Source of the DNA: a candidate division FCPU426 bacterium
Lineage (GTDB): Bacteria; Oederibacteriota; JAAXVQ01; JAUVAV01
Reading direction: 5' to 3'
Length of the DNA: 17,895 nt
NCBI GenBank assembly: GCA_040756875.1
Contig: JBFLYH010000005.1
Location: forward strand, 1-17,895
Positions 3,001 to 17,895 of the stretch are shown here, one piece after another (position 1 is the first letter of the stretch; the number at the start of each line of letters is the position of its first letter). The notes under the pieces are model-generated. The model was given only the letters and a program-made list of their open reading frames with translations. It made no database searches and was not told where the DNA came from. Made by a program: the position numbers and the translations under genes.

Positions 3001-4327
3001 TGAAAAGTCGATACAGATCAACGTGGATAAAGGCTCGATACGTTTCCTGGATCAGCGGTTCTCCGACCTGCTCCTGACCCAGGCTGTGATGGCCGTATTG
3101 GAGCGGTCGATTGCGGATCCCGGGAACGCCCTGTTCACCGACGCCGAACTGACCACCTTGAACAACAAGCTCCAGCAGAGCGGGCAGTTCAAGGAATACG
3201 GAGAACGCGCGGTGGTCGAATTCGTCAAACAGTATTTGCTGGATGGACCGGCGTTGAACGCCTGGGTGGGCCAGGCCGCGGCGGAAGGCCAGGAATGGGC
3301 AATGGTTTCCACGGAAACAGGCGGTACGCCCCGTACCCTGACGCTTTACCAGCTGGTGCGGCAGAAGTTCGGCGGCCGCGAGTTCGTTGAAGCGGATCTG
3401 GCCGAGCTGAACCAGGCCATGAGCGAGTTGGAAAACGAAGCCGTGCCGCTGATGGCCGAGCTGGCGAAGCAAATCCAGGCCGAACCCGCGGCCAGCCGCG
3501 CGGCGCGGCAGACGGAGTTCGAGGAACGGTTCGGGATATCCTATGACAGCTATCAATCCCTGATGAAGCCAAGCTGGATGCAGCGGATCATGATCAAGGT
3601 GGTCGGGGAAGCGCAACTGCAGGGTGACCGGCCAGTGGAGACCGTGCGGCAGTTCGGCTGGCAGCTGGCCGGCGTGGGAGCGGCTGGAGTCGCTTTGGGC
3701 GTTGTCGGCATCCTCACCACCATGCTGCTGCCGCTCGTGGGCGCGGCGGTGGCGCTGACCGGAGGCGCGGTGGCAATCCAGGGCCTATGGTCCGTGTACA
3801 AGGCGCAGGCCATCGCATTCAGCGTCAACCCCGCGGGAGCGGTGGGCGAACGGATGCAGCAAGCCCGCTTCGAGTCAGAACAAGCCCCTCTGGCCGTCCA
3901 GAAAGGGTTGAACACTCTGCGGTTGCTGGAAAATCGGGAGTTCAACCAAGCTGTGTCGGGGTTGAAGATCGCCGGCACGGAACGGATGCTGTCCGAACAA
4001 AGCCGCAGTAAGGCGGTGCGGGCGGTCTTGGGGCAGATGGTCCGGGTAATGGAATCCAATCTGCCGCAGGAACTGAAGCTGCAGCTGGCGCGCGAGCTCA
4101 CACAGGTGCTGGGTTTCCTGCAGTTTGGCTTGAAGGTGCAAGTGCGGCAGGAAGGGCCGGCAGTAACCATGACCCTGACGCCCGAGGTGCAACCACAAGC
4201 CTTGAAGCAGGATTACAAACTGGGGCGTTTGGTGCAGCGTTTGGAAGGCTTGGGCGTTTCAGTCAACTTGGAAGTGGCTCCGGTTCTTAAGCAGCCGAAG
4301 TTGAAACTTACAGGCAGCGCAGTTTAA
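2..4327 (+). CDS. Giant multi-domain membrane-associated protein, C-terminal part (5' partial); degenerate SF2 helicase-like motifs, degenerate zincin-like segment, several predicted TM hairpins
   Basis: The frame is open from position 2 (AAC GGC GAA CTT CGC CTG GTG CAG = NGELRLVQ) to TAA at 4325-4327. The GTG at 20 used by the track has no clear RBS, so the gene most likely starts upstream of the window. Hydrophobic stretches lie at about 2177-2296, 2531-2575 and 3659-3799. A terminator follows the stop codon. Confidence 0.93.
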   Translation, partial: NGELRLVQTTGKNYEAYLLDQARGKMEAGYTQQVFTHNDNTVLGRMALELANRYGVERIEISNATVEAHFRQMAPELTRGLDWGKEADRPAAMEIAIKDMLSGRSSKPQVIEINGMSPESYQRAIEAVSDAIHYTPKMGDVLKMADGLGAGLKASLDHFIRAAGGAEKASVGAWLQEVADAYGKATSEKVARELGCGWTQARYIFAPAIGEGLNIFGAVRGLSNEMQFQGRLVKMDLSPSDVFAQAMKRGNVRDETTSALKRVIADTGLNLNLDTINGIKDVERARFQKFLEDVESKKIDITSEGAKEQFFALFDVMMKDFLVEIDTAKAGEVARTQAGELPRTDAVTVQKGSPEYMRAMADKITKDLPGRLREFQGLADLSASWNRQTPGSLLTRMPGMPAALKQSAGWSRLPSFALLLTGGRLIVNTWQSIQSAIKTDGQQLALVKNLTQTWQNPQITALAARITELKASQPATWLETLVAEQLPAGNVTDLKGKFGAGWEQIALAENSGVAKQVMNATQVAAYKAAFGDTWFESAMQERVGLNWTLYDRVNTILEPKGVIQQLTYRIRLWSAIWHEPAQAKDAYFAALEDVSNLAPVISTVAAAPQSQAARLVYRNQELSLQNAMGYVQQRLGLAQKLAKAYGISATPQVAAFPNRQRLITTQGVALGKIATAELLSRNPLVRLNGWMMSKFENGLRVVQNATIVLPLFKLNKGWVVPTLPGTVAVGAAVLAALSLTNLLLSGLLLGITASALVQPVMAAVLSRAAPDAQARLASAATAQPFNGQGAANRTARMPLAASGMARWEHGVYTGQKQYSRMALNALSLPRAGEANRLGSTVKKIALPVLFLAGGMLLGQPFTVSSALGSISTELAVSMLKAPARSAGEVLVEYRKPAMAETAGIRPEAGWKARPGLSLVETWKQEMYGYESGDTAYNKLQAIIFRPEFGQVRLTAAPVAQHYGYMHLLAAVFSLVPKALDSVSAIEVGTEKVQSPENVVGEKSIQINVDKGSIRFLDQRFSDLLLTQAVMAVLERSIADPGNALFTDAELTTLNNKLQQSGQFKEYGERAVVEFVKQYLLDGPALNAWVGQAAAEGQEWAMVSTETGGTPRTLTLYQLVRQKFGGREFVEADLAELNQAMSELENEAVPLMAELAKQIQAEPAASRAARQTEFEERFGISYDSYQSLMKPSWMQRIMIKVVGEAQLQGDRPVETVRQFGWQLAGVGAAGVALGVVGILTTMLLPLVGAAVALTGGAVAIQGLWSVYKAQAIAFSVNPAGAVGERMQQARFESEQAPLAVQKGLNTLRLLENREFNQAVSGLKIAGTERMLSEQSRSKAVRAVLGQMVRVMESNLPQELKLQLARELTQVLGFLQFGLKVQVRQEGPAVTMTLTPEVQPQALKQDYKLGRLVQRLEGLGVSVNLEVAPVLKQPKLKLTGSAV
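611..760 (+). other. Degenerate SF2 helicase C-terminal motifs V and VI within the first CDS
   Basis: The translation IFAPAIGEGLNIFG...RLVKMDLSPSDVFAQAMKRGNVR resembles SF2 motif V (Snf2-type GGEGLNL) and the following D-L-x-x-x-P...Q-A-x-x-R-x-x-R motif VI. Recognised by eye only. Confidence 0.45.
2903..3385 (+). other. Zincin-like (metallopeptidase fold) segment lacking HExxH
   Basis: The order of elements LVPKALDSVSAIEV / IQINV / LLLTQAVMAVLE / ERAVVEFVKQYLLDGPAL / LYQLVRQKFGGREF mirrors small zincin domains (HExxH helix, ExFAExFxxY helix, terminal YxxxxxxFxGxEF), but the His/Glu ligands are absent. Recognised by eye only. Confidence 0.35.
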
Positions 4328-4354
4328 ATTCGGCATTCATTGGATGTTATTTTC

Positions 4355-4393
4355 AGCCCTGCACTTGAGAGGAAATCAGGTGCAGGGCTTTTT
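4355..4393 (+). terminator. Rho-independent terminator of the first CDS
   Basis: AGCCCTGCACTTGA (4355-4368) pairs with TCAGGTGCAGGGCT (4376-4389), giving a 14-bp stem with one G-U pair and a 7-nt loop GAGGAAA, followed by a T run (TTTTT 4389-4393). It starts 27 nt after the stop codon. Confidence 0.88.
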
Positions 4394-4516
4394 GTAATAT
4401 ATTTTGTAAATATTGACTACTGTTTATCAATGCTTGAAAAGAAGTAGAAACAGACTATGCTTTGGTTTATCAGAATAAAACCCTTTAAAAATAACAATAA
4501 AAACTAACGGGCTTTT

Positions 4517-4545
4517 TTGACATGGCTATTTTTGAATGATATATT
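4517..4545 (+). promoter_or_regulatory. Sigma70-type promoter for the second giant gene
   Basis: Perfect -35 TTGACA (4517-4522), 17-nt spacer, extended -10 TG (4537-4538) and -10 TATATT (4540-4545, 5/6 match). An A-rich UP-element-like tract lies upstream at about 4487-4507. Confidence 0.75.
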
Positions 4546-4730
4546 TAAGCTATGTATATTTGAAAAACCTTATAAATTAAGTAAAAATGAGCATTCGGAA
4601 TAATATTTAGTGCATGTGTGAAGTCTCGCGGCCAGGTGCGAATCTGTATTGGAAAACTATAGAATAACTAGATTATTCAGGTTTATTTTGAATTTTATAT
4701 CACATTGAATAGAAGTTTTGGCCATTTGAC

Positions 4731-4737
4731 GGGAGGG
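4731..4737 (+). promoter_or_regulatory. Shine-Dalgarno site of the second giant gene
   Basis: GGGAGGG ends 5 nt before ATG 4743. An in-frame TAG at 4710-4712 makes 4743 the first usable start. Confidence 0.85.
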
Positions 4738-4742
4738 CCGGC

Positions 4743-4886
4743 ATGGGCGAGCGGATCTCACGCCTGCAAAGATTACTGCAACGTGGTTGGCGGCGATATA
4801 AGAAACCGCTGCAATCATCCGTCAGCCTGCTTACCTCCCTCTGCTTTCTCATCACCAGCCTTGGGCTTCCTCAGCCGCTGTGGGCA
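4743..4886 (+). other. Long Sec-type signal peptide (about 48 aa)
   Basis: Basic n-region (RISRLQRLLQRGWRRYKK), hydrophobic h-region (VSLLTSLCFLITSLGL) and c-region PQPLWA followed by polar SENSY. Predicted cleavage is after Ala48. Confidence 0.7.
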
Positions 4887-7800
4887 AGCGAAAACAGTTA
4901 TCAATTCAATTATGATGGATCGAGTTTAAAGCCAGCAGTGGTTCAGGTCAATGTTCCGCAGGTGGATCTGCCGGACCTGTCGACCCTGGTTCAGGCCGTG
5001 CAGCCGAATGTGAAAATTGATGCGTCGCACATCAGCGATTTCCAGGTCGGCGGCATTAAGTTGGAAGGCAGCCTGTCGCAGATCATCAACCTCGTCCAAC
5101 CCAAGATCGAAGTCAATCCGCAAATCGAATTGCCCGAGGTGTCGTCCGCAATCAATGAGGTAGTCACTTCCGGGCTGGAAGATGTCGCCGTGGAGGCCTC
5201 GGTTGCCGCCAAGGTTCCGCTGCAGGACTTGAGCACTGTCAGCACCATGCAAATCCCTGAACCCGGGCTGGTAAAGACCGAACAGCTGGAGAACGACGTC
5301 GCCGAACCGACCGAGAAAAAAGTCGTGGATGTGCAAAAACTCAAGGAACAGGTGGGGAGTCTGCCCGGATTGATTGCGGCATACCTGGGCGGGGCGGGCC
5401 CGAACCCGTTTGAAGACGGCGACGAGTTTGACGCGGAGGACGTCAAACTGAAGGTCAATGAGATCGCCGAGGCCCTGTCGGCTGTCGGTTCGGATCCGGC
5501 CAAAGTGGCGCAGATCATCGGCAGCCTGAATCCCGAAGTCCAAAACCAGGTGGCGGAAAAGGTTTCGAGCAAAACCCTCGGCCCGGCGCTGGCCACCATG
5601 GATCCAGCCGCGGCGACCGCGATCATCTCGGGCTTGTCCCCCGAAAAGCAGGCGGAAGTGGCCCAATATGTTTCCGGAAGCGGAAAACTTCCGGAAACAA
5701 CGATACCGGACACCGACATTAAAGCCCGAAGCACGCAAGTGCCTGCTTCGGGGTACGATCCGGCCAGCAATACCTACACCGAAAACAAAACCCAGGCGAA
5801 CGGAACCGTGTTGAGCACCACCTATGCGGGACAAGACAACTCCGGGCAAGTGACGGCGGCCAGTGTCTGCAGCGCCAACGGGGCGCAACAGGAAAGCTGG
5901 ACTTACTCCAGTACCGGCGCCGAGCACACGGTGCGCAAGGATTTCAGCAACGGCGCCTATATGATTTACCACCAGAACGAGTGCGGCCACATCATCAGTT
6001 GGGAAAGCTACAATACGCAAGGCCAACTGGCCACCACCGGGACGGAGAAGCGCCAGAACGCCTCGGGCACCGACCCGACGCTCCAGACCGGCGGCACGGG
6101 CACGGCGCAGGACGGCACCCGCACCTGGGGGCCGACCACCGCGCAAATCCAGGCGGATATCGCGGCCGGAAAAACCTCGGCCACCTACGCGGACGGCTCG
6201 TATGCCCGCTTTACGCGCAACGCGGACGGAACCACTACCGTTCAGCTGAGAGGATACGTGCAGAGTTCGACGCCCAATGAAGATTACGGCGGATGGTCGC
6301 AATACTCCTATAATTATCAATCCATCACCCAGACCTATAACACCAAAAACCAATTGGTATCCGAAACCGACGGGGTAAACACCAGCCACTTCAGCTACGA
6401 TGCCCAGGGCCGGATGACTTCCAGGGAAGTGAGCGGGCCCGGAACGCACCTACGATATACCTACGATCCGGCGACCGAACGGCTGACTAAATTTGAAAAC
6501 CTCATCGCCGGCACCAGTATGTCCTATTCGTACGATTCGCTCGGCCGGATCACCAGCTGCAAGGATCAAAACGGGGTGGTCCACAACGTGGCTTTGCCCC
6601 CCAGCACTTCCGCCGACTGCCAGTATGTTTTCGACAAAGACGGGCGCGTGGTCAGCGCCACCAGCGGGGGGAACACTTACACCTACGACGAGCAGGGAAG
6701 GGTCACCTCGATTCTTCGGGCCGACGGTGCGCAGATAACGGTTACGGACTGGGATGACAAAGGCCGGGCGGTCAAAGGAACCTTCACCGGCGGCGAAGCG
6801 GATGGCCTGATGTGGGAAAGCGGGGGACTGAATCAGAAGAATTCACAACTGAGCGGTTCAGGCACCATCATGTTCAAGTACAACGAACAGGGGCTGCTGG
6901 CCGGCGAAGCCATTGTCCACAGCGGCGGTAAAGAGTTGGAATGGAATTATTATTCGTACAACGAGAACGGCGAGTTGTACGAAAAAATGACGCTGAACCA
7001 GGACAACGAAGTCACCCGCACCTATTACCGCAACGGGCGGGAGATCGGCAGCATTGATAAAGACGGCAATCTGTCAGCCGCGGCCGGCGCCACCCAGGAA
7101 GATCTGAAATACCTGATTGGCATTTATGCCTACCAGATGCTGGGCCGGGAGGCAGGTGCGGAGGAGGTCGATGCTTGGCTGAACCTGGCCAACCAGAAGG
7201 GCATCAAGGCAGTCAGCGACACGATTAAAAACAGCGACGAGTACGTCCAGAACACCATTCAAAGCACCTATAAAAGCCTGCTGGGCCGCGAATGCAGCGC
7301 CGAAGAAATGCAAGTCCACATGGACAATGTCCATAAGAACGGATTCGACGCCAAAGCCTTCAGGTCGGACATCGAAAAATCGCCGGAGTTCCTCAACGGC
7401 CCCGGGTTTGCCAATAAAATGACCGATTTGTACCAGCGGTATTGGCGTCGCGCACCCACGACCGAGGAAGTGGAGTACTGGCGCACCTCCATAGCGAACG
7501 GAGGCACATCGCTCGACAAATTGGAAAAGCAGTTCATGGAGAGCCCGCAGTACAAGTCGGACCCGGCCTCCGACTGGGCCATGCGCGACATCGCGGCCAA
7601 ATACATGGGCGTGGAAAACGCGACCATGGAGGATTTCAAGAACTGGGGCTGGGTGGACGCGAACGGGAACGCGCAGACCATCAACAGCATCGTCAACTTC
7701 ATCAAGTCTTCCGAGCAGTACGTCTGGCGGGTGCTGGAGGATTGCAATAACAAACAGATCGATCCCGTCCACTACGTCAAACCGAAAAAGAGCGGCGGAC

Positions 7801-10800
7801 TGTTCGGCGCCATCATCAAGGCCATCATTCAGGTCGTGGTCACGGTGGTCCTGACCTATGTCATGGGGCCGCTCGGCACCATTTTGGCGGGCGCCATTTT
7901 CGGCGCCATCAATGCGGCCCAAAACGGCGGGAACATCTTCAAGGGCATGGTCATGGGCGCGGCCATGGCCGCGGCTACCATGGTGTTCTCGGCCGTGGCC
8001 AATGCCGTGATGTCCGCCGCCCAGGCGGCCTTCACGACCGGCGCGAACTTCGCCGCCACCTTCGCCTCAAACCTGGCGAAGAGCTTCGACAGTTTCGTCA
8101 GCAGCCTCAAAGCCATCGGCGAAGGCCTGCAGAACATGGCCGGCATGGTGCGGGACATCATCAGCAAATCCCTGACCAAAATCGGCAGCGTAATCATGAA
8201 TGAAACCGGGCTGGCCCAGAAGCTCGGCGTGGTGGGCACGGCCCTGGTCATGCTGGGGGTCAGCGCCCTGGCCAACGGCCTGGCCGAGGGCGCGGTGAAC
8301 AAGCTGGGGTTGAACGTGGACGCCGCGGGCAATGTGGTCAGCACGAGCTTCAGCGACGGGTTCAAAAGCGGGTTCATGTCCTCCCTGGAAGGCGGCATGG
8401 CCGGGCAGTTCGAATCGTCCAGCACGGCCATCATCGCCAATGTGGCGCGGACCGCGATTTCGGCGGCCGTGGAGGACAAGGTGCAGAGCAGCACGGGCAA
8501 CCCGTTCCTGGCGGCGTTCGCCTCCTCCCTGTCCGGCGCCCTGGTGACAGGCCTGGTGGGGATGGTGGCGGATCTGGGCGCCAGCAGCGCCAAGGGGCGG
8601 ACGGACCTGGCCACACCCGGCGGAAATTCCGACACCCAGACCTCGCCAGTGCCCGGCCAGGGGATCGTCGGTCCTGCGGGCACGGGCCTCGAAGAAGGCG
8701 GCGCAACCGGACTGGCCGGCGGGGAAAACAAGCAAAACGCAAACGCCGCCCTGTCCAGCGCCGAACAGACGAGCAGCAGTTCATCCTCCCAGGAAACGTC
8801 GCAACAGCAGGAGATCGCGGACCTTCCCACGAAAGAACAACCCGGCGGAAGCTCCCTCACGCAAGCCCAGGATGCCCAGCGCCTGGCCAAAGGCGAAAAC
8901 CCCCTGGCAGCCGAAAAGAAACAGGCGCTGGCCACGGGCGCGGAATCCTTTGGCGCGGGCGAGAATGCCCAGAGCAGCGGACAGGATTCCTACGTGCAGC
9001 CCGGGTCCGAACCCAAATCGGAATCGTCGGTCAAAGATCTGAGCAGCGGCAACCAGGCCAAGGGCGTGGCCGATCAATCCCAGCAGGCCGCTTCGGGCGC
9101 GACATCTGCGACGACGGCGGAAAAAGCCGAGGGGCTTCAGAATAAATCCCAGGAATCCGCCTCCAGTCAGAGCCAGACAGGAACCACGCCCCGGAGCGCG
9201 AATTTGCCGCTGGCAGACACGCCGCGGTCCGAAGCGCCGGAGGGGAACTACGGAGAACAACCCCAGAGCGCAGAACCCAGCCAGGTTCCAAAAGACTTGG
9301 AAACCGGCTTGCAGGGCAATGCGGCCGCCGCCCAGGAAAAGATGGAGGAAAAGCTGCCGGCGGTTCAGGCTGATGAAGCGGAAAAAGCCAAGCCGGAAAA
9401 AGGTGTGGAAAACGCTCTTCCAGGCGAGCAGACCGGCGGCAAAATCATGCGCCGGGACGGCGAAGTGCCGATGGATAAAACGGTTGAAGGCGGCTCCGGT
9501 GCGCAGGGCGGCGGAGCCGGTGAAGGCGGCGAGGGAAGCAAGGGCGGCCAGGGCCAAAAAGAACAGGCTCAAACCGAAAAAACGGACCAAAAAACCGAAG
9601 GCACTTCGCTGCAGGACTTCGGCCGCAGCCTGTTCGGCACCAGCATTTCCAAGATGGTGACCGAAAGCCTGGCCAGCGGCATACAGGCGGCTTTCGAGCG
9701 CGCCGCAGTGAAGATGTATGTCAACCAGGTGTTCAACGTCAAGGCCATGGCCGAAGAACAGGGCGTGTCCGAGGGCGAAATGCGGGCCCAGTTGGAAGAG
9801 ACCATCAGCCAGGCCTGGTCAAGCCATACCGGTTCGGACGTCAATTTAACCCGCGCCTGGCAGAACCTGAAAAACGCGATGACCTACGGCACGCAGCAGT
9901 ATTACGACGCGCAAGGCCGGAAAGTCATCGAGACCAACACCTTTGGAGACAAGACCTACCAATACGGCAACGGCCAGATTGGGTATGAACCCAAAGGCAC
10001 GGATCTGCGGATGATTGTCGATCCGGCCGGATCCATGCAGATGATCGATCTTAAAACCGGCCAGCCGTTGAGCCAGCTGCCGGAAAATCTCGAAGCAGTG
10101 ACCCAGGGATTGAAGCAAATGGCGGCCAGCTACGCCCAAACCGGGCAAATGGACTGGGCCGCTGGCACCAATCTGGCCCTGTATCAGCTGACCCAGGATC
10201 AGCAATACCTGCAACAGGCCGCCAGTCAGGTCGCCCAGGCGGCTGACAGTGCCTATCACAATCCAAACCTGGCCGCTGGCAACGCCCAGATGCTGGCCAA
10301 GGCAGGGCTGATCGAACCCGCGGCCCTGGCTGCCCGGCAGGCCTTGTACAATGCCGACAGCCTGACCGCCGGACAGGAAGCCCAGGTCAAGCTGAGCGCC
10401 GCGACCGTGCTGGCAGCCAGCGGCCAGGCCGGAGCCCAGGTGGCCCAAGCCCTGAGCGATGTTAAGCAGTATTTAAACGGCCTGGAAGGCAGGCAACTGA
10501 CCGGTGAAGCGCTCTCCCTGGCCGCTAAATACGACGCCCTGGCCCGGCAGACCTCCGCAGCCGATGCCGCCAAAACACCGACCGTCATGGATGCCATGGT
10601 GCGCCAGCTGGCTCCGGCTGTAAACGCGGCCGCAGCCGGCTTGGAAGTTGGCGGGAAAACGGCGATGCCCGGCCTGGAGAACAGCGTAATCGAACGCACA
10701 GAAACCGGCTGTGTCTTGACCCAGCAAGGCAATGACGGAAGCCGCGTTTCCATTGCCTTCGACCCGGGCTTGGCGGCCTCCAGGGTCGAAGTCAGCAACG

Positions 10801-13800
10801 CGGCCGGGCAGTTGCAACAATCCTACCAGGCACAGCCCTGCGGCATGGAACTGACCATGCAGCGGGAACTGGTGAAAGTGGAACTGCCCGGGGGCCGGGA
10901 AAAATACGTGGATGCCCTGGTGCCCGCCGAACGCAAGGGCGCGGTGCAAACGCTGGCCAAGATCGACGGCCAGACCTACGTGCTGACCGTGGGGCAGGAC
11001 AACCAGGCCGAGGCCAAGCCGGCCCACGAGGCTCCGGCGGACCGGACGTTCGCGGATGCCAACCTCCCCCGGGGAAAGCTGGAATTCCGCGGCGACTCCC
11101 TGACCTTCACCCCGGAAGGCGGCCAGGCGCAGACCGCGCAGGGCCGCGTCATTCAGGATGCCGCCGAAGTCAAGGCCCTGGGCTTGATTGCGGTTGAGGC
11201 CGAGGCCCTGGTCGGGAAAACCGCCTATACCCTGGATATGCCCGGACAAAACCCGGTCACTTTTATCGGGTCAGCCGCGGAAATCGCGGCCGGCAACTAC
11301 TACGTGACCAGCGCCAGCCAGGCGCTGGCTGCCAGCTCGGGACAGGAAAACCCGGTAACCTATCTGGCCCAATACCGCAACGGAGTGCTCGGAACGGTTC
11401 ACGTTCAGGACTCCTTCCATACGGCCATTGACTACCAATCCGCGGACCTGGCCAAGTTTACTGTGACGCAAACCAGCGAGGATGGCCAGCGCGTGGCCAG
11501 CCTGAAGTACGATGACCATACCCTGCAGGGATACGAAGTGGAATACAAGGCGTTCGGCGTGACCCTGCAGTACGACGCCCGCGGCAACCTGACCGCGGAA
11601 AATCTGCAGCACCTCCAGAAAAACAGCGGCCAGGGATACACCTTCAAGGCCAACGGCCAGGGCTTCTCGCTGGTGGACAATGCCACGGGCTTCGAACAGT
11701 TCTTCAGCGGCCAGGGCCGGGCGCTGCTCAATACCGGCCAGGGTGGCGGTGGCGGAATCCAGGAAGTGGTCGAGTTCGACGTCAGGGAAACGGTAAGCTT
11801 CGAGGTGGCCAAGTACGAGCAGGGCCGCCTGGGGTCGCAAACAGTGCGCTATGACCAGATCCGACGCGAACACGCCCTGTTGCAGGGTTCGGCCGGGGGC
11901 GTGGTCACCAAGACGCTAATCACCAGCGACGTGTCGGGCACGGTCAACAGCCGGCAGGTCGAAAACGGCAATCTGCTCCAGAGGGAGACAGGGACCTTCA
12001 ACGCCGCGGGCGAACTGGACCATGGCACCCGCCATCTGGTGGCCCGGCTCCTGGAAGGCAAGGACGAGGCCGGCAACCTCGTACGGCGGGAAAACGTCAC
12101 CAGCGACGAACGGTTGATCAGCGGCAAAGTGGCCGAAAGCACGATGCATGTGGATGCGGTGACCGTCAGCAATACGCAAGGCGTGCAGATTCAACACATG
12201 ACTGATATGAATTACAAGAATGGAGAAGTGGTTTCCGCCGCCACCCTGGAGGCCGGACGGCAATACATGACGGGAGTGGCCTATAAAAACGGCAAGCTCG
12301 ACTATGCGGCGACCATGACCATTGCCAACGAGGACGGTAAAACGGCCACAAAGATGGAAGCCGTGACTTTCAACGAAGACGGGACGCTGAAAGCGGCGGA
12401 CCGCTACGAAGCAGGCGTGCAAACCATGACCGGGGTGAAGTTTGGGGCCGAGAACAGGCTGGAATACGCGAAGACTCTGGCCATAGCCGGCGAGAAAGGC
12501 AAACCAGTCACGAAGATGCAGGGCGTGACGTTCAACGCGGACGGGACGTTGAAAGCGGCGGACCGCTACGAAGCAGGCACCCAAACCATGACCGGAGTGA
12601 GGTTCGGAGCGGAGAACCGGGTGGAATATGCAAAGACTCTGGCCATGGCGGGCGAGAAGGGCAAGCCAACGACGAAGATGGAAGGTGTGACTTTCAACGC
12701 GGACGGGACGTTGAAAGCGGCGGACCGCTACGAAGCAGGCGCGCAAACCATGACCGGGGTGAAGTTCGGCGCGGAGAACAGGCTGGAATACGCGAAGACC
12801 CTGACGATTGCGGGCGAAAAGGGCAAAACAGCCACGAAGATGCAGGGGGTGACGTTCAACGCGGACGGGACGTTGAAAGCGGCGGACCGCTACGAAGCAG
12901 GCGCGCAAACCATGACCGGGGTGAAGTTCGGGGCGGAAAACAGACTGGAATACGCGAAGACCCTGACGATTGCGGACGAAAAGGGCAAAACAGCCACGAA
13001 GATGCAGGGGGTGGCCTTCAACGCGGACGGAACGCTGAAAGCGGCGGACCGCTACGAAGCAGGCAGCCAGACCATGACCGGGGTGAAGTTCGGCGCGGAG
13101 AACAGGCTGGAATACGCGAAGACCCTGACCATCGCGGGCGAGAAGGGCAAGCCGGCGACGGAAATGCAGGGGGTGACCTTCAGACCGGATGGGAAGATCG
13201 CCCGGGCGGACCGGATAGAGGAAACCATTGCCCGCCAGGACGTGAAAAACAGCGAGGGCCGGGTGGTGGGCGAGGAACGGGGGATCCATCGCGTCCTGAC
13301 GAACGCTCAATTCGACGAGAAGGGCAACCTGGTCAGCGCCACCCAGAAAGTCCGGATCGATCTCCGTACGGAGTTCAACGCCGAGAAGGGCCTGACCATC
13401 GAGAGCCGGAATATCCGTTCCGAAGCGAGGATCGATGCCGGGAGAGTGGTCGAAAGCCGGACCGAAGTCGCATCCGTCAGGACCCTGAACGCCCACGGGA
13501 AAGTCGTTCAGGAGCAGTTCAACCCCTTTGAGACGCAGTTCGAGGTCAAGGTGGGCGGAAAGAACGTTGTGGTGCAGACCACGCAGACCAAGGAAGGGTC
13601 GCAGGTCACGCTGAACGGCGACAAGGCCCATGCCATTGCCTTGGGCACCGGCGTGCAGGTGACCACGGACGGCAAGTCGCTGTACCTTCAGGACGACCGC
13701 GGCGTGATCCGCCGGTTTACGGCCGAAGGCAAGGAAACCACGGGCTGGTTCAGGGAACGGGCGAACAACTGGCATGAATTCACCGACAAAGCCGGGACCG

Positions 13801-16800
13801 CCTGGAACACCTATGCGGGCCGCCTGGTCAAGCTGGACAACTGGGTGAACAGCAGCAGCGGCGTCGGCCAGGCCGCGTGGCGCGGGTTCGTGCGCGAACT
13901 GGGCGGGGTGGCTTCGCTTGTGGCCTTTGGCGCCAGCACGCTGTTGGACGCGGGCCTGACCCTGGCGGCCCAGACCGTGGGTGCGGTGATCGGCCCGACT
14001 TTGGAATGGTCGATCAATGTTTTTGCCTACCCGGCCGCCATCGCGGTCTATGTGGCCACCGGCAAGTCGCTGGGGCGCGTGATGCTGGACGCGGCCAAGG
14101 ACGGCATTGCCGCGGTCTTCGCCCCGCTGGACGCGAAAATCCAGGCGGCCCAGGGCTGGCTGCTGGACAAGGCGGAAGCCGCGTTGAGCAAGGCCGAGAT
14201 GTCGGACAGCGTCGTGGGCACGGCGTTCTGGGGCGCGGCGGCCGCGGGCCTGAAAGTGTTGGGAGAGAATCTGCCCATTGTCATCATCCTTTCCTTGAAT
14301 GCGCTGCCGTACGTCGGGACGGCCCTGAGCAGCGTTTTGGGCACGGTGCTGCTGGCCAAGGACGCCGTGCTGCACGGCCTGGGCCATATGTTCCAGTCGT
14401 TCTTCATCACTCCCTTCAATAATATATCCGCCGGCCTGTTCCAGATGGCCGACGCGTTGTTCAACCCGCAAGCCAGCGCCATGTCTCAAACCCGGCAGAT
14501 GGTCAATGCCGCGGCGGCCATTGGCAACGGCCTGGTCGGGCTGGTGTTGGCCAAGCAGATGCTGCGGGAACCTTCCGCCGAGGCCAAGGGCGAAAAACTT
14601 GAAACCGGGCTGAGGCCGCTGAAGGAATCCTTGCAGGCCCGGCTGCTGGAGGCGGGACCAGAGGGGCTGGGCGGCGTTCTCAAGCTGAAACTAAGCGAAC
14701 TGGTAAGCAGCGCGCTGAAACTGCCCGAAGGATTGCTGAATAAAACCAGTTGGGGCAAGCTGACCCTGGAAGACGCGGCGTTCAATCTGGGCGGCAACCG
14801 GGTGAGCATCAGGGAACTGCTGACCAACAAGACCGCTTTCCCGGACGGGGCCGTGCAGGTCATGAAGCTGCTCACTGCCCCGGAGTTCCGTTTGAGCAGC
14901 CTGGAATTTGCTTCGGCCGGGCCCAAGGCGCCTTTCCTGCAGCGCCAAGTGGCGGCCCGCTTGGAGCGGGCGATGGACAAGGCGCTGGGCAGAGAGCCGC
15001 AGGCCGGCGCCGGGTCGGCTTACAAACCGCTGACCCAGATCATCAAACCCGGCCAGGTCGGCCTGGCTTTTTCCTTTACCGGCACGCTTCCGGCCATGCG
15101 GGTTTTCGGAACCGCGTTTATCCAGCACCAGGTCCAGCAATTCGTGACCGCCGGCCGGATGATCGCCGGGCTGGGGCGCTGGGTGGGCAACGCGGAGTTC
15201 ATGCAGCCGATCACTGATCGGATTTCCACCCTGATTCAGGGGATGCAAACCTGGGCGGCGCGCGCGTGGGACAGCGCAGCCATGCGCCTGTTCTATCCCG
15301 AACCGCTGCGCGCAGCCGGTCCGGGCGTCGCACAGGCGCTGCGCAGCGGCTCCTGGCGGGAGGCGGGCAGCCAGGCCGCCGGGGCGTTCAAGCAGGTCGG
15401 CGTTGGCCTGAAGCAAGCCGTGGCTGACCTGCCGCAGGCTTTGCGAAGCAGATCCGAAGCAGTGCTGAAGCCCGCGGAACGCGCCGTGGCGCGCGAAAAC
15501 GGTGCCCTGGCCCGTACGGGCATGGCCGAGAGTCCGGCCGACCGTCCGTTAAAAACCGAAAGCCCGGCCGGCCAGCGGAACGAAACCGGCGGGCTTGCAA
15601 GCCAGCAGCGGAGCGAACCCGCCGCCAAGACCTCCGGAACCAAAGGCGAGGCTGTGGCCGCGGCCAAGCCGGAGGCGGTCAATGCGAAACCTGAAAGCAA
15701 ATCCGGGGCGGCAGGCAGAACCGAATCAGCGGAATTGGCCAAAGCGAGGTCCGAAGTCGAGCACTTCCAGAAAGAACTGACGCAAGCACGTTTGAGTTTG
15801 GCTGAGGCGCGTCAGGCGGACAGGCCGCAAGCCGAGATCAACCGCCTGGAACAGCGGGTGGAAAAAACCGAAGGCGCCCTGCAACGCGCCCAGAAGCAGG
15901 CGTTTGACCAGAAGGTCTTGGACTTGCAGGCGCAAAAACAGCAGGCCGCCGGAACGGACGCCGGGCAGGGGCGTTCGCCGCTGGAAAGGGCCAAAGCCCG
16001 TATGGAGGAAGCGGCGCTGGACGGCGAGATCCGCATGACCGAGCTGGAGTCCCGGGCCTCGGCCCTGGCGCACGAAATACGCGGCCTGGAAATCCGGGCG
16101 GCAACCGAACCTTCCGTTAAAGCCCGGCTGGAAAACCTGAAAAACGAGCTGGAAGGCCTGCGCAACGAGCAGGCCCGGCAGCAGCAATGGCAGGAGGCGT
16201 CCCTCCAGGCCGGGCAGGCCCAAGTCAGGCGGCTGGAACTGGGGACGCAGTTGGGCGAAGCGCGGGCCGCGCAAACCGAGGCCGCGGCGACGCCTGAAGC
16301 CCGCAAGGCGGCCGAGCTGAAAGCCCGGCGGATCGAAAAAGAAATGCGCCAGGTTGAACTCGAACAACAGGCCGCCGAAGCCGGACAGCGGGTGCTGGAA
16401 TTCCAGGCCGAGCTGGCCAGGGCCCAGACCACAAGGGACTTTACGCGGGCATTGGACAAATTGACCGGTGCAGAGCGGGCGCTGGCCCAGACCCAGTTCA
16501 AGCTGGCCCAGGCGGAGCGGCAAACTGAACGCGCCGGCCGGGCCGAGTCCAAGGCCGCGGTGCCGGAAATGCTGCGGCAGGCGGCGGCTGATTCCAAGTC
16601 AGGCCTTGGCAGCCGGGAGATGCGCCAGGGCGTGGAAGCTGTGGCCAAGGAACAATCGCCGGGGAATAAAAGAGTGCGGGACGCGGTGACCAAGGCCATA
16701 GCCGAGCTGATCAACGGAAAAGCGGCTGACCCCGCGGAAGCCCTGCGGGTGCTGGAACGCGGCACCGGCAGCCTGCAGCAGGTGCTGGAATCCATGGCTC

Positions 16801-17894
16801 GCCACGGCCTGAGCCAGCAGGCGCAGAAAATATTGGACCAGCTCTGCGAGTCGCGGGGGATCAAGGACAACGCAGCCCGGGAAGCGTTGGCCAGGGAACT
16901 GGGCCTCGCGCCCGAAGGCAAGGCTGCTGAATCCGGGGCGATGCAGGCACTCAAGGAACAAGTGTTTGGCAGCCGGAAAGCTTCTGACCCGCGGTACTCA
17001 GCCGATGCCCTGGATGCGCTGCGGAGCCTGGGAGCGGATCTCAAGGAAGGGACGTCCTTTGACACTGCCCTCCGCCGGAGCGGCAGCCGGGTGGAGCAGG
17101 CCTTCCGCCAGCTGGAGCAAGGAGCGGGGAAAGCCGCGGTCGAACAATTGGTCGAACGCATGACCGCGGAACAACTCAGGGAAGTGCTGACCTCCTCCAA
17201 TCCCCTGGACACCCTGAAAAACCTGCTTTCCCGCCAGCAGGCGGGAAATGAAACACAGGGGCAGGCGCCTGCTTTCAGCGAACAGCTGGCTAAAGCTCCC
17301 GGTCAAGCCGAAGCCCTGCTGCAGCGCATGCAGCAGGTGCAGGAAGCCGGGGCAGCGATGCGGCAGGCAGTGGATAAAGTGAACCAGGCCCGGACGTACG
17401 CAGAGCGGCAGGCTGCGCAGAAACAGCTGGCGCGGGCCGAGCAACGATTGACACAGATGGAGCGGCTGGCGGGCATCAAGCCCGAGGCCGGGCGGAGGAT
17501 CCCCTTCACGTCCGAATGGCGGGCCAGCCGGCAGGCAGGGCAGGAGTCAGCGAACACGCAGCGGACGACGTATCTCAAACAGCAGCTCAACGCCGTGGAC
17601 AACATGAGGAACCTGAGTCCCACCGAGCGAGCGACGCTGCGGGAGTTGATCCAGAACGAACTGCAGATCCTCAAGCTCCAGGGCAAACAGGAAGGCTGGC
17701 TGGCGCGGCGGTTCGAGAGCTTCCGGAACCGGAATGCCTCGCAAATGACGTCATTGTACAAGGCGCGAACGCAGCTCGTGGAAGCGCTGACGACCCGGAC
17801 GGAGAACGGGGAGAAGGTCTACAGCAACGAAACCGTGATGAAACTGCTGGCAGCCGAAGGCGTGTCTCGGGGCATGATGGAGACGGCCGCGGTG
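4743..17894 (+). CDS. Giant exported YD/RHS-repeat and DUF4214-like-repeat protein with two hydrophobic blocks, a 54-aa tandem repeat array and a coiled coil (at least 4,384 aa, 3' partial)
   Basis: Manual translation from ATG 4743 (MGERISRLQRLLQRGWRRYKKPLQSSVSLLTSLCFLITSLGLPQPLWA...) stays in one frame to the window end (...GVSRGMMETAAV). The track lists no + strand ORF in this frame after 4743, consistent with no internal stop. Promoter, RBS, signal peptide and GC-rich third positions all support it. Confidence 0.95.
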   Translation, partial: MGERISRLQRLLQRGWRRYKKPLQSSVSLLTSLCFLITSLGLPQPLWASENSYQFNYDGSSLKPAVVQVNVPQVDLPDLSTLVQAVQPNVKIDASHISDFQVGGIKLEGSLSQIINLVQPKIEVNPQIELPEVSSAINEVVTSGLEDVAVEASVAAKVPLQDLSTVSTMQIPEPGLVKTEQLENDVAEPTEKKVVDVQKLKEQVGSLPGLIAAYLGGAGPNPFEDGDEFDAEDVKLKVNEIAEALSAVGSDPAKVAQIIGSLNPEVQNQVAEKVSSKTLGPALATMDPAAATAIISGLSPEKQAEVAQYVSGSGKLPETTIPDTDIKARSTQVPASGYDPASNTYTENKTQANGTVLSTTYAGQDNSGQVTAASVCSANGAQQESWTYSSTGAEHTVRKDFSNGAYMIYHQNECGHIISWESYNTQGQLATTGTEKRQNASGTDPTLQTGGTGTAQDGTRTWGPTTAQIQADIAAGKTSATYADGSYARFTRNADGTTTVQLRGYVQSSTPNEDYGGWSQYSYNYQSITQTYNTKNQLVSETDGVNTSHFSYDAQGRMTSREVSGPGTHLRYTYDPATERLTKFENLIAGTSMSYSYDSLGRITSCKDQNGVVHNVALPPSTSADCQYVFDKDGRVVSATSGGNTYTYDEQGRVTSILRADGAQITVTDWDDKGRAVKGTFTGGEADGLMWESGGLNQKNSQLSGSGTIMFKYNEQGLLAGEAIVHSGGKELEWNYYSYNENGELYEKMTLNQDNEVTRTYYRNGREIGSIDKDGNLSAAAGATQEDLKYLIGIYAYQMLGREAGAEEVDAWLNLANQKGIKAVSDTIKNSDEYVQNTIQSTYKSLLGRECSAEEMQVHMDNVHKNGFDAKAFRSDIEKSPEFLNGPGFANKMTDLYQRYWRRAPTTEEVEYWRTSIANGGTSLDKLEKQFMESPQYKSDPASDWAMRDIAAKYMGVENATMEDFKNWGWVDANGNAQTINSIVNFIKSSEQYVWRVLEDCNNKQIDPVHYVKPKKSGGLFGAIIKAIIQVVVTVVLTYVMGPLGTILAGAIFGAINAAQNGGNIFKGMVMGAAMAAATMVFSAVANAVMSAAQAAFTTGANFAATFASNLAKSFDSFVSSLKAIGEGLQNMAGMVRDIISKSLTKIGSVIMNETGLAQKLGVVGTALVMLGVSALANGLAEGAVNKLGLNVDAAGNVVSTSFSDGFKSGFMSSLEGGMAGQFESSSTAIIANVARTAISAAVEDKVQSSTGNPFLAAFASSLSGALVTGLVGMVADLGASSAKGRTDLATPGGNSDTQTSPVPGQGIVGPAGTGLEEGGATGLAGGENKQNANAALSSAEQTSSSSSSQETSQQQEIADLPTKEQPGGSSLTQAQDAQRLAKGENPLAAEKKQALATGAESFGAGENAQSSGQDSYVQPGSEPKSESSVKDLSSGNQAKGVADQSQQAASGATSATTAEKAEGLQNKSQESASSQSQTGTTPRSANLPLADTPRSEAPEGNYGEQPQSAEPSQVPKDLETGLQGNAAAAQEKMEEKLPAVQADEAEKAKPEKGVENALPGEQTGGKIMRRDGEVPMDKTVEGGSGAQGGGAGEGGEGSKGGQGQKEQAQTEKTDQKTEGTSLQDFGRSLFGTSISKMVTESLASGIQAAFERAAVKMYVNQVFNVKAMAEEQGVSEGEMRAQLEETISQAWSSHTGSDVNLTRAWQNLKNAMTYGTQQYYDAQGRKVIETNTFGDKTYQYGNGQIGYEPKGTDLRMIVDPAGSMQMIDLKTGQPLSQLPENLEAVTQGLKQMAASYAQTGQMDWAAGTNLALYQLTQDQQYLQQAASQVAQAADSAYHNPNLAAGNAQMLAKAGLIEPAALAARQALYNADSLTAGQEAQVKLSAATVLAASGQAGAQVAQALSDVKQYLNGLEGRQLTGEALSLAAKYDALARQTSAADAAKTPTVMDAMVRQLAPAVNAAAAGLEVGGKTAMPGLENSVIERTETGCVLTQQGNDGSRVSIAFDPGLAASRVEVSNAAGQLQQSYQAQPCGMELTMQRELVKVELPGGREKYVDALVPAERKGAVQTLAKIDGQTYVLTVGQDNQAEAKPAHEAPADRTFADANLPRGKLEFRGDSLTFTPEGGQAQTAQGRVIQDAAEVKALGLIAVEAEALVGKTAYTLDMPGQNPVTFIGSAAEIAAGNYYVTSASQALAASSGQENPVTYLAQYRNGVLGTVHVQDSFHTAIDYQSADLAKFTVTQTSEDGQRVASLKYDDHTLQGYEVEYKAFGVTLQYDARGNLTAENLQHLQKNSGQGYTFKANGQGFSLVDNATGFEQFFSGQGRALLNTGQGGGGGIQEVVEFDVRETVSFEVAKYEQGRLGSQTVRYDQIRREHALLQGSAGGVVTKTLITSDVSGTVNSRQVENGNLLQRETGTFNAAGELDHGTRHLVARLLEGKDEAGNLVRRENVTSDERLISGKVAESTMHVDAVTVSNTQGVQIQHMTDMNYKNGEVVSAATLEAGRQYMTGVAYKNGKLDYAATMTIANEDGKTATKMEAVTFNEDGTLKAADRYEAGVQTMTGVKFGAENRLEYAKTLAIAGEKGKPVTKMQGVTFNADGTLKAADRYEAGTQTMTGVRFGAENRVEYAKTLAMAGEKGKPTTKMEGVTFNADGTLKAADRYEAGAQTMTGVKFGAENRLEYAKTLTIAGEKGKTATKMQGVTFNADGTLKAADRYEAGAQTMTGVKFGAENRLEYAKTLTIADEKGKTATKMQGVAFNADGTLKAADRYEAGSQTMTGVKFGAENRLEYAKTLTIAGEKGKPATEMQGVTFRPDGKIARADRIEETIARQDVKNSEGRVVGEERGIHRVLTNAQFDEKGNLVSATQKVRIDLRTEFNAEKGLTIESRNIRSEARIDAGRVVESRTEVASVRTLNAHGKVVQEQFNPFETQFEVKVGGKNVVVQTTQTKEGSQVTLNGDKAHAIALGTGVQVTTDGKSLYLQDDRGVIRRFTAEGKETTGWFRERANNWHEFTDKAGTAWNTYAGRLVKLDNWVNSSSGVGQAAWRGFVRELGGVASLVAFGASTLLDAGLTLAAQTVGAVIGPTLEWSINVFAYPAAIAVYVATGKSLGRVMLDAAKDGIAAVFAPLDAKIQAAQGWLLDKAEAALSKAEMSDSVVGTAFWGAAAAGLKVLGENLPIVIILSLNALPYVGTALSSVLGTVLLAKDAVLHGLGHMFQSFFITPFNNISAGLFQMADALFNPQASAMSQTRQMVNAAAAIGNGLVGLVLAKQMLREPSAEAKGEKLETGLRPLKESLQARLLEAGPEGLGGVLKLKLSELVSSALKLPEGLLNKTSWGKLTLEDAAFNLGGNRVSIRELLTNKTAFPDGAVQVMKLLTAPEFRLSSLEFASAGPKAPFLQRQVAARLERAMDKALGREPQAGAGSAYKPLTQIIKPGQVGLAFSFTGTLPAMRVFGTAFIQHQVQQFVTAGRMIAGLGRWVGNAEFMQPITDRISTLIQGMQTWAARAWDSAAMRLFYPEPLRAAGPGVAQALRSGSWREAGSQAAGAFKQVGVGLKQAVADLPQALRSRSEAVLKPAERAVARENGALARTGMAESPADRPLKTESPAGQRNETGGLASQQRSEPAAKTSGTKGEAVAAAKPEAVNAKPESKSGAAGRTESAELAKARSEVEHFQKELTQARLSLAEARQADRPQAEINRLEQRVEKTEGALQRAQKQAFDQKVLDLQAQKQQAAGTDAGQGRSPLERAKARMEEAALDGEIRMTELESRASALAHEIRGLEIRAATEPSVKARLENLKNELEGLRNEQARQQQWQEASLQAGQAQVRRLELGTQLGEARAAQTEAAATPEARKAAELKARRIEKEMRQVELEQQAAEAGQRVLEFQAELARAQTTRDFTRALDKLTGAERALAQTQFKLAQAERQTERAGRAESKAAVPEMLRQAAADSKSGLGSREMRQGVEAVAKEQSPGNKRVRDAVTKAIAELINGKAADPAEALRVLERGTGSLQQVLESMARHGLSQQAQKILDQLCESRGIKDNAAREALARELGLAPEGKAAESGAMQALKEQVFGSRKASDPRYSADALDALRSLGADLKEGTSFDTALRRSGSRVEQAFRQLEQGAGKAAVEQLVERMTAEQLREVLTSSNPLDTLKNLLSRQQAGNETQGQAPAFSEQLAKAPGQAEALLQRMQQVQEAGAAMRQAVDKVNQARTYAERQAAQKQLARAEQRLTQMERLAGIKPEAGRRIPFTSEWRASRQAGQESANTQRTTYLKQQLNAVDNMRNLSPTERATLRELIQNELQILKLQGKQEGWLARRFESFRNRNASQMTSLYKARTQLVEALTTRTENGEKVYSNETVMKLLAAEGVSRGMMETAAV
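5493..5672 (+). repeat. MgtE N-terminal/FliG-like 12-aa helical repeats
   Basis: DPAKVAQIIGSL / NPEVQNQVAEKV / SSKTLGPALATM / DPAAATAIISGL / SPEKQAEVAQYV are five units with exact 12-residue periodicity. Confidence 0.55.
5750..7075 (+). repeat. YD/RHS-like beta-hairpin repeat region
   Basis: YDAQGR (6396), YDPATERL (6462), YDSLGRITS (6531), FDKDGRVVS (6630), YDEQGRVTS (6684), WDDKGR, YNEQGLL (6879) and YNENGEL (6957), plus looser copies upstream (YNTQGQL, YNTKNQL). Confidence 0.8.
7110..7721 (+). repeat. Four DUF4214-like helical repeats
   Basis: AYQMLGREAGAEEVDAW...IKNSDEY; YKSLLGRECSAEEMQVH...IEKSPEF; LYQRYWRRAPTTEEVEYW...FMESPQY; AAKYMGVENATMEDFKNW...IKSSEQY. These match the Y-x-x-x-L-G-R-x-P...W...S-x-E-F/Y pattern of DUF4214. 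Confidence 0.7.
7785..8580 (+). other. Gly/Ala-rich hydrophobic hairpin block 1 (putative membrane-insertion region)
   Basis: KKSGGLFGAIIKAIIQVVVTVVLTYVMGPLGTILAGAIFGAINAAQNGGNIFKGMVMGAAMAAATMVF..., then GVVGTALVMLGVSALANGL and NPFLAAFASSLSGALVTGLVGMV. GxxxG/GxxxA zippers are present. Confidence 0.65.
8592..9605 (+). other. Low-complexity S/Q/E/G/A-rich, probably disordered linker (about 340 aa)
   Basis: Examples are EQTSSSSSSQETSQQQE, QESASSQSQTGTT and EGGSGAQGGGAGEGGEGSKGGQGQKEQ. Very few aromatic residues. Confidence 0.75.
12348..13214 (+). repeat. In-frame tandem array of 162-bp (54-aa) units: 5 full copies plus a partial sixth, with a degenerate copy upstream from about 12198
   Basis: The anchor GACCGCTACGAAGCAGGC recurs at 12399, 12561, 12723, 12885 and 13047, and diverged (GACCGGATAGAG) at 13209, so the period is exactly 162. 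Consensus: TKMQGVTFNADGTLKAADRYEAGxQTMTGVKFGAENRLEYAKTLTIAGEKGKxx. Confidence 0.97.
13872..14552 (+). other. Hydrophobic block 2 (multiple putative TM/amphipathic helices)
   Basis: LGGVASLVAFGASTLL, VFAYPAAIAVYVATG, VVGTAFWGAAAAGL, LPIVIILSLNALPYVGTALSSVLGTVLLA and AIGNGLVGLVLA. Confidence 0.65.
15729..16535 (+). other. Long predicted coiled-coil region
   Basis: E/Q/A/R/K/L-rich heptad-like runs: AELAKARSEVEHFQKELTQARLSLAEARQ, EINRLEQRVEKTEGALQRAQKQ, KARLENLKNELEGLRNEQARQQQ and AERALAQTQFKLAQAERQTE. Confidence 0.7.
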
Positions 17895-17895
17895 A

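Follow-up and report, generated by a model that had tools for sequence, protein, structure and literature searches.

A truncated giant gene from a candidate division FCPU426 bacterium belongs to an undescribed, order-restricted family with a predicted Sec-type leader and hydrophobic blocks

Results

A giant open frame cut off by the assembly

The window analysed here, 17,895 nt in length, is the entire small contig C5 of a candidate division FCPU426 genome (G000; 3.22 Mb, 7 contigs, rated 100% complete). Most of it is taken up by a single forward-strand frame of 4,384 codons, which the open reading frame (ORF) list and the translation follow from the ATG at 4743 to 17894 with no stop up to the window end; the frame has been stop-free since 4713, after an in-frame TAG at 4710. 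This 13-kb frame is a genuine gene cut off by the assembly, and its product, P0001, is a paralog of a small, previously undescribed family of giant proteins that is confined to one order of an uncultivated groundwater phylum. The frame must be real and coding, because chance cannot yield about 4,400 stop-free codons and because two other proteins share 49-56% identity with the product. A preliminary description of this DNA had reported one open frame of at least 4,384 codons, which proved correct, and had called the gene hidden, which does not hold for every annotation, since its exact 4,384-aa product is already present in a public protein collection, from a 17,895-nt contig.

The start of the gene is preceded by P0002, the end of a neighbouring gene, and by a 415-bp AT-rich spacer (GC content 0.46 in 4001-5000 vs about 0.60 elsewhere; Table 1). 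For the ribosome-binding site named in the preliminary description there is a candidate 6 nt before the ATG, and the promoter ascribed to the gene stands as a consensus match only; the spacer region contains 7 promoter-like sites vs 1.5 ± 1.3 in shuffled sequences, all of them likewise consensus matches.

Continuity was examined with contigs from run X1, a groundwater metagenome that is probably the source sample and is thus not independent data, its contigs having been built by another assembler. These contigs cover 1144-12413 and 13100-17388 with 0 differences and no indels, so that neither a frameshift nor a stop appeared in these intervals. One of them, 11,270 nt long, agrees fully with the window from the end of the upstream gene through the spacer, the head, the first hydrophobic block and the linker into the start of the body, and it takes in the head-body junction at nt 10173. 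The repeat zone between the two intervals (12413-13100) is covered by short pieces only, and the copy number of its 162-nt unit (5.5) is therefore not secured. Any copy number preserves the frame, the unit length being divisible by three.

Table 1. Features of the 17,895-nt window, in order of position (aa, amino acid residues of P0001 unless stated otherwise; AF2, AlphaFold2 model; pLDDT, predicted local distance difference test score)
Feature	Position	Strand	Basis
P0002, 1,441 aa, C-terminal end of neighbouring sister giant gene	2..4327	+	P0004 match, alignment A1, hydropathy
Terminator-like hairpin after upstream gene	4355..4389	+	14 pairs, T-run; consensus match only
Sigma-70-like promoter match TTGACA-17-TATATT, 11/12, in AT-rich spacer	4517..4545	+	Consensus match only
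Shine-Dalgarno-like GGGAGG, 6 nt ahead of ATG	4731..4736	+	Read from sequence
Giant ORF P0001, 4,384 codons, open at contig end	4743..17894	+	ORF list, translation, protein match, X1 contigs
Leader, aa 1-49: basic stretch, 17-residue hydrophobic core, L-W-A↓S	4743..4889	+	Translation; hydropathy peak aa 31-39; paralog leaders analogous
MgtE_N / FliG_M-like helical repeats, aa ~240-308	5460..5666	+	Sub-piece Pfam scan
Short YD-repeat array, aa ~532-746 (YD-like from ~340)	6336..6980	+	Pfam, NCBIfam, PDB match, motif scan
Four DUF4214 / phycobilisome-linker-like helical units, aa 780-1000, ~50 residues each	7080..7742	+	Pfam; unit count from translation
Block 1, aa 1017-1276: 40-residue hairpin-like segment and three more hydrophobic helices	7791..8570	+	Kyte-Doolittle up to 2.32
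Acidic Ser/Gln/Glu/Gly/Pro-rich low-complexity linker, aa ~1290-1640	8610..9662	+	Composition, translation
Conserved family body, aa 1811-4384: helical, beta-rich, repeats, block 2, charged helices	10173..17894	+	Homologue alignments
Tandem repeat, 162 nt x 5.5 (54-aa units of two 27-aa halves)	12311..13194	+	87% matches, no indels, self-matches
Charged antiparallel beta-meander, ~15-residue strands, aa 2821-3000	13203..13742	+	AF2, alignment A3 (10 rows), pLDDT 75-87
Block 2, aa 3040-3275: long amphipathic helices, one strongly hydrophobic hairpin aa 3165-3198	13860..14567	+	Hydropathy, alignment, AF2
Charged Ala/Gln/Glu/Arg-rich helical region, aa ~3680-4240	15780..17462	+	Charged fraction 0.26-0.33
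Repeat common to window end and contig C2 end, 97% identical	17297..17895	+	Depth 193 vs 56-62 in unique part

The missing 3' part and the sister gene

The extent of the missing sequence can be gauged from P0004, a 6,688-aa protein of genome G032, which belongs to the same genus as G000. Residues 2036-4803 of P0004 align to P0001 residues 1830-4384 with 49% identity, and residues 5325-6687 align to P0002 with 59% identity over 1,440 aa. According to these alignments and to synteny, P0001 lacks about 330-520 residues and a C-terminal module of about 1,300-1,440 residues; the full-length protein would be about 6,000 aa, and the window would hold its first two thirds. P0002 carries the most conserved module of the family, with hydrophobic hairpins at its aa 718-766 and 1220-1263 (hydropathy) and a conserved extreme tail, K-Q-P-K-L-K-x-T-G-S-A. 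Its parent gene is probably C2c, which lies at the end of contig C2.

Both ends of the window are repetitive. The last 599 nt are 97% identical to the terminal bases of contig C2, and it is at this shared repeat that the assembly broke; over its first 1,463 nt, the window matches the end of contig C3 at 85% identity. Since the X1 depth is 146-193 at the two ends vs 56-62 inside, both represent collapsed repeats. At 1-600 and 17300-17895 the depth reaches 2.5-3.5 times the value of the unique part, and several variant contigs lie there; the sample must therefore contain both end segments in at least one additional, nearly identical copy.

G032 is collinear with contig C2 of G000 to the end of that contig and then with contig C3 from 418.5 kb downwards. 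Between these flanks G000 has the open-ended C2c (at least 4,835 aa, 53% identical to P0004 over its entire length, including the head), contig C5 and, where C3 ends, a C-terminal fragment of 1,305 aa. The simplest chain would run from C2c through a gap to P0002, the spacer and P0001, and through a second gap to the C3 fragment, in which case G032 lacks a counterpart of the P0001 gene. Closing contig C5 into a circle, with P0001 leading into P0002, was rejected for this chain because G032 synteny places both flanks, a decision based on synteny and not on reads. Downstream of the presumed 3' end of P0001, at G000:C3:418737-427951 on the reverse strand, two overlapping frames of 1,036 and 2,246 aa with an N run between them contain repeats similar to those of C2b, a YD-rich 6,133-aa gene; G032 does not have these frames at that place.

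Architecture of P0001

The first 49 residues form a predicted Sec-type signal peptide or signal anchor, in agreement with the signal peptide proposed earlier. Three kinds of domain follow in the head. When aa ~240-308 were scanned as a sub-piece, FliG_M scored 29.3 bits (cut-off 25) and MgtE_N 27.0 bits (cut-off 25.9); both fell below the cut-off in the whole protein. The YD repeats described earlier are genuine, with matches to RHS_repeat (PF05593, E 5.4e-8) and TIGR01643 (E 2.1e-10), and with 43.2 bits in 3 stretches when aa 341-779 were scanned as a sub-piece; aa 532-746 also match the Rhs-family structure 8h8a in the PDB (E 6e-4), and six YD motif matches lie at aa 550-744. All 15 matches in a search with aa 40-1300 are RHS proteins that cover only 8-29% of this stretch, and all 15 carry PF25023. 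The DUF4214-like anchors were likewise recovered as four units: with aa 780-1000 scanned alone, PBS_linker_poly (PF00427) scored 36.2 bits (cut-off 28.7) and DUF4214 (PF13946) 33.8 bits (cut-off 23.2), compared with 24.8 and 20.2 bits, both below cut-off, for the whole of P0001.

The head is followed by two hydrophobic regions, separated by the linker and the first part of the body. Block 1 has four segments with a Kyte-Doolittle value of at least 1.6, of which the first is the 40-residue hairpin-like stretch, and its equivalent was seen at aa ~770-1260 in 8 of the 8 other members profiled N-terminally. The body begins with Ala/Gln-rich helices followed by beta-rich sequence; it is 49-50% identical to P0003/C2c and P0004 and 29% identical to C2a. 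At the position of the 162-nt repeat P0004 has a longer run of 27-residue units, so that the repeat number varies between members. The model of the beta-meander gave only weak resemblances to OspA and the Rhs core in Foldseek. In block 2, the helices were modelled with a pLDDT of 45-77, and G3174, N3176, L3177, K3206, D3207 and A3208 are invariant or nearly so.

Not all of the preliminary description of these regions can be upheld. Of the two membrane-insertion blocks, block 1 is indeed strongly hydrophobic, whereas block 2 holds a single strongly hydrophobic hairpin. The comparison with Gly-zipper translocation regions of toxins is not borne out: GxxxG is enriched in neither block, and enrichment of a small-xxx-small zipper is limited to block 1 (26 vs 17.3 ± 4.0, with 28 of 1000 shuffles reaching 26). 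The coiled coil placed near the end of the frame is charged and helical, but a crude heptad scan was positive only at aa 3747-3787 and 4187-4230, and the rest of the region lacks heptad support.

A family of giant proteins in one order

One layout is common to the members of the family. A Sec-type leader opens the chain; the head, of about 750-1,000 residues, comes next and is followed by a hydrophobic block of several helices, an acidic linker that is disordered, a conserved body and a C-terminal module. The body consists of helices, charged beta-meanders and 27/54-residue repeats, then a second, partly hydrophobic helical block and charged helices. The C-terminal module, of about 1,400 residues, is conserved and has two or three hydrophobic hairpins in every full-length member. 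The positions of the hydrophobic blocks are common to all members profiled N-terminally, and most paralogs have a conserved leader ending in A-H-A↓F-D. The P0001 body (aa 1811-4384) is collinear with that of other members, over about 2,550 residues with two homologues. The module order that had been singled out in P0001 is common to its paralogs, and the head alone, with its YD and DUF4214 units, is special to it.

P0001 is an extra tandem paralog whose head, composed of MgtE_N-like repeats, a short YD sheet and four DUF4214-like units, is unlike that of any other member. Its leader and head region (aa 1-1810) gave no BLAST match at E ≤ 1e-3 to other giant ORFs of G000 or of related genomes; with composition correction switched off, a weak, collinear, composition-driven similarity appeared over block 1 and the linker. 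Pfam recognized nothing in P0003, the P0004 head, C2a, an 8,056-aa relative and four of five further heads. The fifth (L046, G022:C16:49807 onward) has six MgtE_N units at aa ~390-811 (E 3.8e-87) after a Sec-type leader; elsewhere, MgtE_N is familiar from the portion of the Mg2+ channel MgtE that lies in the cytoplasm, and P0001 has one weak unit of it (aa 240-308). Fast evolution of the heads was considered and rejected: in orthologue pairs the heads are 52-78% identical and the linkers are the least kept part (37-41%), which indicates that heads differ by paralog type and not through rapid drift.

The distribution of the family is narrow. P0002 matches 13 of the 99 genomes of the phylum, namely 9 of 10 in family f1, 3 of 4 in family f2 and 0 of 84 in the other 21 families, and these matches sit in open frames of mostly 5,516-8,131 codons; the body block matches 6 of the 15 genomes of the order. 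A hidden Markov model of the body block, run against 1,835,955,588 representative proteins, returned seven matches, all of 3,532-7,658 aa. A word-indexed protein search with aa 1800-3500 recovered P0001 itself, a paralog and P0004 only (3 of the 1,494 candidates scored), and a scan of JGI metagenomes with the C-terminal module confirmed one locus.

Members usually stand in tandem arrays at one locus, which is syntenic across the order and comprises Memo-like, GAF, transketolase, Lnt-like and giant genes. An Lnt-like gene (LNT_N and CN_hydrolase) lies 0.2-1.4 kb upstream of a C2a-type giant gene, on the same strand, in 5 of 5 genomes (in G000 the Lnt-like genes are at C2:1076361-1078031, forward, and 1099254-1100957, reverse; the others are on G032:C1, G027:C21, G022:C16 and G023:C4). 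A second one occurs just downstream in G000 and G032, and each genome has 3-6 LNT_N matches. We set the Lnt-like acyltransferase aside as a dedicated partner, because the flanking Memo, GAF and transketolase genes are syntenic with G000 too and, with the surrounding stretch syntenic in G032 and three further genomes, the adjacency may reflect inheritance only. Giant genes are not confined to this locus: G000 has 28 stop-to-stop frames of at least 2,000 codons, which amount to 399,432 nt or 12.4% of the 3.22 Mb (the longest having 12,551, 12,450 and 10,037 codons), and contigs C4 and C6 each consist of one open-ended giant frame, of at least 6,812 and 4,323 codons, from other, unrelated families.

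Searches for known domains and folds

Outside the head domains of P0001, searches of Pfam, NCBIfam, PHROGs, PDB sequences and folds identified nothing. In P0001, neither PF25023 nor any other RHS core match was found in Pfam at E ≤ 1, and a regular-expression search did not find P-x4-D-P-x-G-L/W, the end motif of the RHS core. The haemagglutination activity domain of two-partner secretion (TPS) had no Pfam or NCBIfam match at E ≤ 1 in P0001, and no TpsB-like gene was present among the neighbouring ORFs scanned; GGxGxD (regular expression) and HemolysinCabind were also absent from P0001. The opinion that this is not a classical RHS, CdiA, MARTX or RTX protein is thus confirmed. SecA_DEAD, dockerin/TSP3 and enzyme domains were found in none of P0001, P0002, P0003, the P0004 head, C2a, C2b and the 8,056-aa relative, and Pfam and NCBIfam revealed no ATPase in P0001.

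The C-terminal module of P0002 was modelled with a pLDDT of 70.8 and a predicted template-modelling score of 0.62. Its folded part (aa ~911-1147) may weakly resemble zincin metallopeptidases but lacks HExxH; neither HExxH nor HxxEH occurs in the six members or fragments checked, and alignment A1 has no invariant His. Foldseek gave no row at E ≤ 0.001 against the PDB for both models or against BFVD for the C-terminal model. PHROGs gave only rows at E > 0.01. By sequence, the PDB yielded only the Rhs match to the YD part, and profiles A3 and A1 found nothing there below E 0.4. In the ESM Atlas no usable match was obtained for the head, and rows for the C-terminal domain were at chance level (0.80). 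A pattern search of genome contigs with A2 gave 38 pattern matches and 0 confirmed ones, the genomes of the relatives seemingly lying outside that set. The C-terminal module was not found among proteins of 2,523-5,000 aa, a range that full-length members exceed. Full-text searches of the literature found no description of the family, although an unnamed family is not findable in this way and supplementary tables of giant-protein papers might list the lineage. In accordance with the earlier suggestion of an undescribed class, no described family was matched in these searches, a full-length assignment to a characterized family was sought and not found, and the body profile matched seven family members alone.

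Discussion

YD repeats and DUF4214 domains are typical of extracytoplasmic binding or surface proteins, and SecYEG integrates, rather than exports, segments that reach a Kyte-Doolittle value of 1.7-2.3 over 19 residues. A Sec leader followed by such strongly hydrophobic segments is therefore expected to give an integral inner-membrane protein and not a free secreted one. The reading we favour, at about even confidence, is that P0001 is a Sec-inserted, multi-block, inner-membrane-anchored envelope protein in which a putative binding head is exported and is exchangeable on a conserved body. The leader would send the head across the inner membrane via Sec, block 1 would stop the transfer and anchor the chain, and the later hairpins would hold the remaining giant chain at the membrane. 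Such a membrane-threaded protein would present an exchangeable putative binding head on the conserved body, and the paralog arrays would supply several contact or binding specificities.

Several observations weigh against this proposal. The first helix of block 1 has a K-P-K-K cluster ahead of it, on what is supposed to be the outer side. Most of block 2 is amphipathic, only one of its segments reaching 1.6 or more, and the block may not be embedded in the membrane. The YD array is short (about 215-430 residues), and the MgtE_N/FliG-like units, present in the P0001 head and six-fold in the head of a relative, fit an exported head poorly. The neighbourhoods of the arrays showed no genes for secretion or for outer-membrane partners. 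In addition, it is synteny and homology that connect P0001 to the C3 fragment, and no read or contig spans the joint.

Some of these observations lead to the most serious alternative, a giant scaffold with most of its chain at the membrane's cytoplasmic side, which we consider unlikely but well short of negligible. MgtE_N and FliG domains are cytoplasmic in known proteins, and repeats like them occur in the heads. The later hydrophobic stretches of P0002 and its relatives, at 40-50 residues, have the size of hairpins that return the chain to the same side; cysteines are almost absent (0-2 per 200 aa), and the arrays have no export machinery genes beside them. Opposed to a cytoplasmic location are the leader, which has the classic positive-hydrophobic-AxA form of an export signal in P0001 and, as A-H-A↓F-D, in most paralogs, the extracytoplasmic habit of YD repeats and DUF4214, and the seemingly odd number of helices in block 1 (about 5, the count being uncertain). 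The same cytoplasm-facing topology has been proposed for the transmembrane-only ('TM-only') giants of Omnitrophota, and 422 of 916 long proteins were predicted to be of this kind (10.64898/2026.06.07.730766).

A contact-dependent delivery or pore-forming protein seems improbable to us. In that case the chain, or part of it, would leave the cell and its hairpins would insert into a target membrane, as in translocators or alpha-pore-forming toxins. The bilobed hydrophobic hairpins with long helices on their flanks and the small-residue zipper of block 1 (its count being reached by 28 of 1000 shuffles) would suit such a role, as would the C-terminal module, which gave Foldseek rows to the ClyA-type proteins AhlB, MakA and SmhB; these rows are weak and non-significant (E 0.14-0.5, template-modelling score ≤ 0.21), and the fold matches are at background level. 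G000 is also unusually rich in giant genes, as are the predatory Omnitrophota (10.1101/2023.11.21.568195). However, the members scanned revealed neither a toxin or protease domain nor any other catalytic one, and the six members or fragments checked have no HExxH. It is the N-terminal part that varies, with a conserved C-terminus, which is the reverse of polymorphic toxins. Moreover, the succession of a Sec leader and strongly hydrophobic helices speaks against export of the whole chain, and no type I (T1SS), two-partner or type VI (T6SS) secretion genes lie nearby. The role in delivery, adhesion or predation suggested in the preliminary description is not borne out, delivery in particular being opposed by the lack of a toxin or enzyme domain in the members scanned, by the conservation of the C-terminus and by surroundings devoid of secretion genes.

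An assembly chimera of joined paralogs or a decaying pseudogene is highly improbable, since the collapsed repeats at both contig ends (depth 146-193 vs 56-62) and the short-piece coverage of 12413-13100 are outweighed by a second assembler's 11,270-nt contig that agrees without difference from the upstream gene end to the body start, a frame open for 13,152 nt, a repeat unit of 162 nt, which is a multiple of three, and a body collinear with two homologues over about 2,550 residues. A search of sequencing runs listed no RNA run, which weighs on neither side.

Beyond the inner-membrane-anchored envelope protein with an exported head, a more ambitious version can be imagined, which we regard as a doubtful speculation. 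The family would then form a trans-envelope device, in which a single chain of 6,000-8,000 residues passes several times through the inner membrane with its conserved hairpin blocks and links a binding head, exported and exchangeable, with a conserved body whose last part is a zincin-like domain that is catalytically silent. The invariant polar residues in the hydrophobic block, G-x-N-L at aa 3174-3177 and K-D-A at aa 3206-3208, are cited for this version. With their swapped heads, the tandem paralogs would provide these uncultivated groundwater bacteria with a set of specificities for contact with partner, host or prey cells.

Giant genes of uncultivated bacteria are a recognized gap in knowledge and have so far been described mainly for Omnitrophota. 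The family of P0001 adds an unrelated family of giant proteins, of 5,500-8,100 residues and with essentially no database-recognizable content, in another small phylum. As the paralogs share a body and differ in their heads, they provide a natural experiment on head binding. The case of P0001 also shows how giant genes break short-read assemblies and leave 'orphan' contigs behind.

Among known systems, the closest likenesses of the head are partial. P0001 has genuine YD repeats (aa ~532-746), as have Rhs and YD proteins (PDB 8h8a, the TcB-TcC part of Tc toxins and teneurins), and the charged beta-meanders predicted elsewhere in its chain are superficially similar. In contrast to these proteins, its array is far shorter and lacks both PF25023, which 15 of the 15 matched RHS proteins carry, and the core end motif; its YD part is an N-terminal head module and not a shell around a C-terminal toxin. 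The family keeps its C-terminal module, varies its head and has no variable C-terminal toxin, the C-terminus of P0001 itself lying beyond the contig. Similarly, the four units of about 50 residues at aa 780-1000, above both cut-offs when scanned alone, resemble the DUF4214/phycobilisome-linker domains of secreted or surface proteins, but in P0001 they stand between a YD sheet and a membrane block, a combination absent from the 15 matches of the head search.

The comparison with the giant proteins of Omnitrophota concerns design and not descent. No sequence relationship was detectable, a profile search of 1.84 billion proteins having returned seven members of the P0001 family only, and the family belongs to a different phylum, with 99 species representatives. 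The full-length P0001, at about 6,000 aa, would be smaller than the Omnitrophota giants, for which 10,000 to 147,000 aa are given. The Archaeovorin and dockerin types have SecA_DEAD, or dockerin/TSP3 repeats, with many enzyme domains (10.1101/2023.11.21.568195). The family of P0001 differs from them in having no SecA_DEAD, dockerin/TSP3, glycosidase or peptidase domains and in having no type II secretion or pilus genes seen beside its arrays. By contrast, a layout of signal peptide plus transmembrane segments was reported for 356 of 916 long Omnitrophota proteins (10.64898/2026.06.07.730766), and by hydropathy P0001 shows the same layout, with a leader and 5 Kyte-Doolittle segments. P0001 resembles these proteins further in its very long chain, its origin in an uncultivated groundwater bacterium, a signal-like leader with several transmembrane-like blocks behind it, long antiparallel beta structures, a scarcity of recognizable domains and the presence of several giant genes per genome. 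Therefore, what is new here is an order-restricted family, and what is already known is its design, lately recognized in Omnitrophota; the leader-plus-membrane-block design common to both suggests a general solution for very long proteins that are tied to a membrane.

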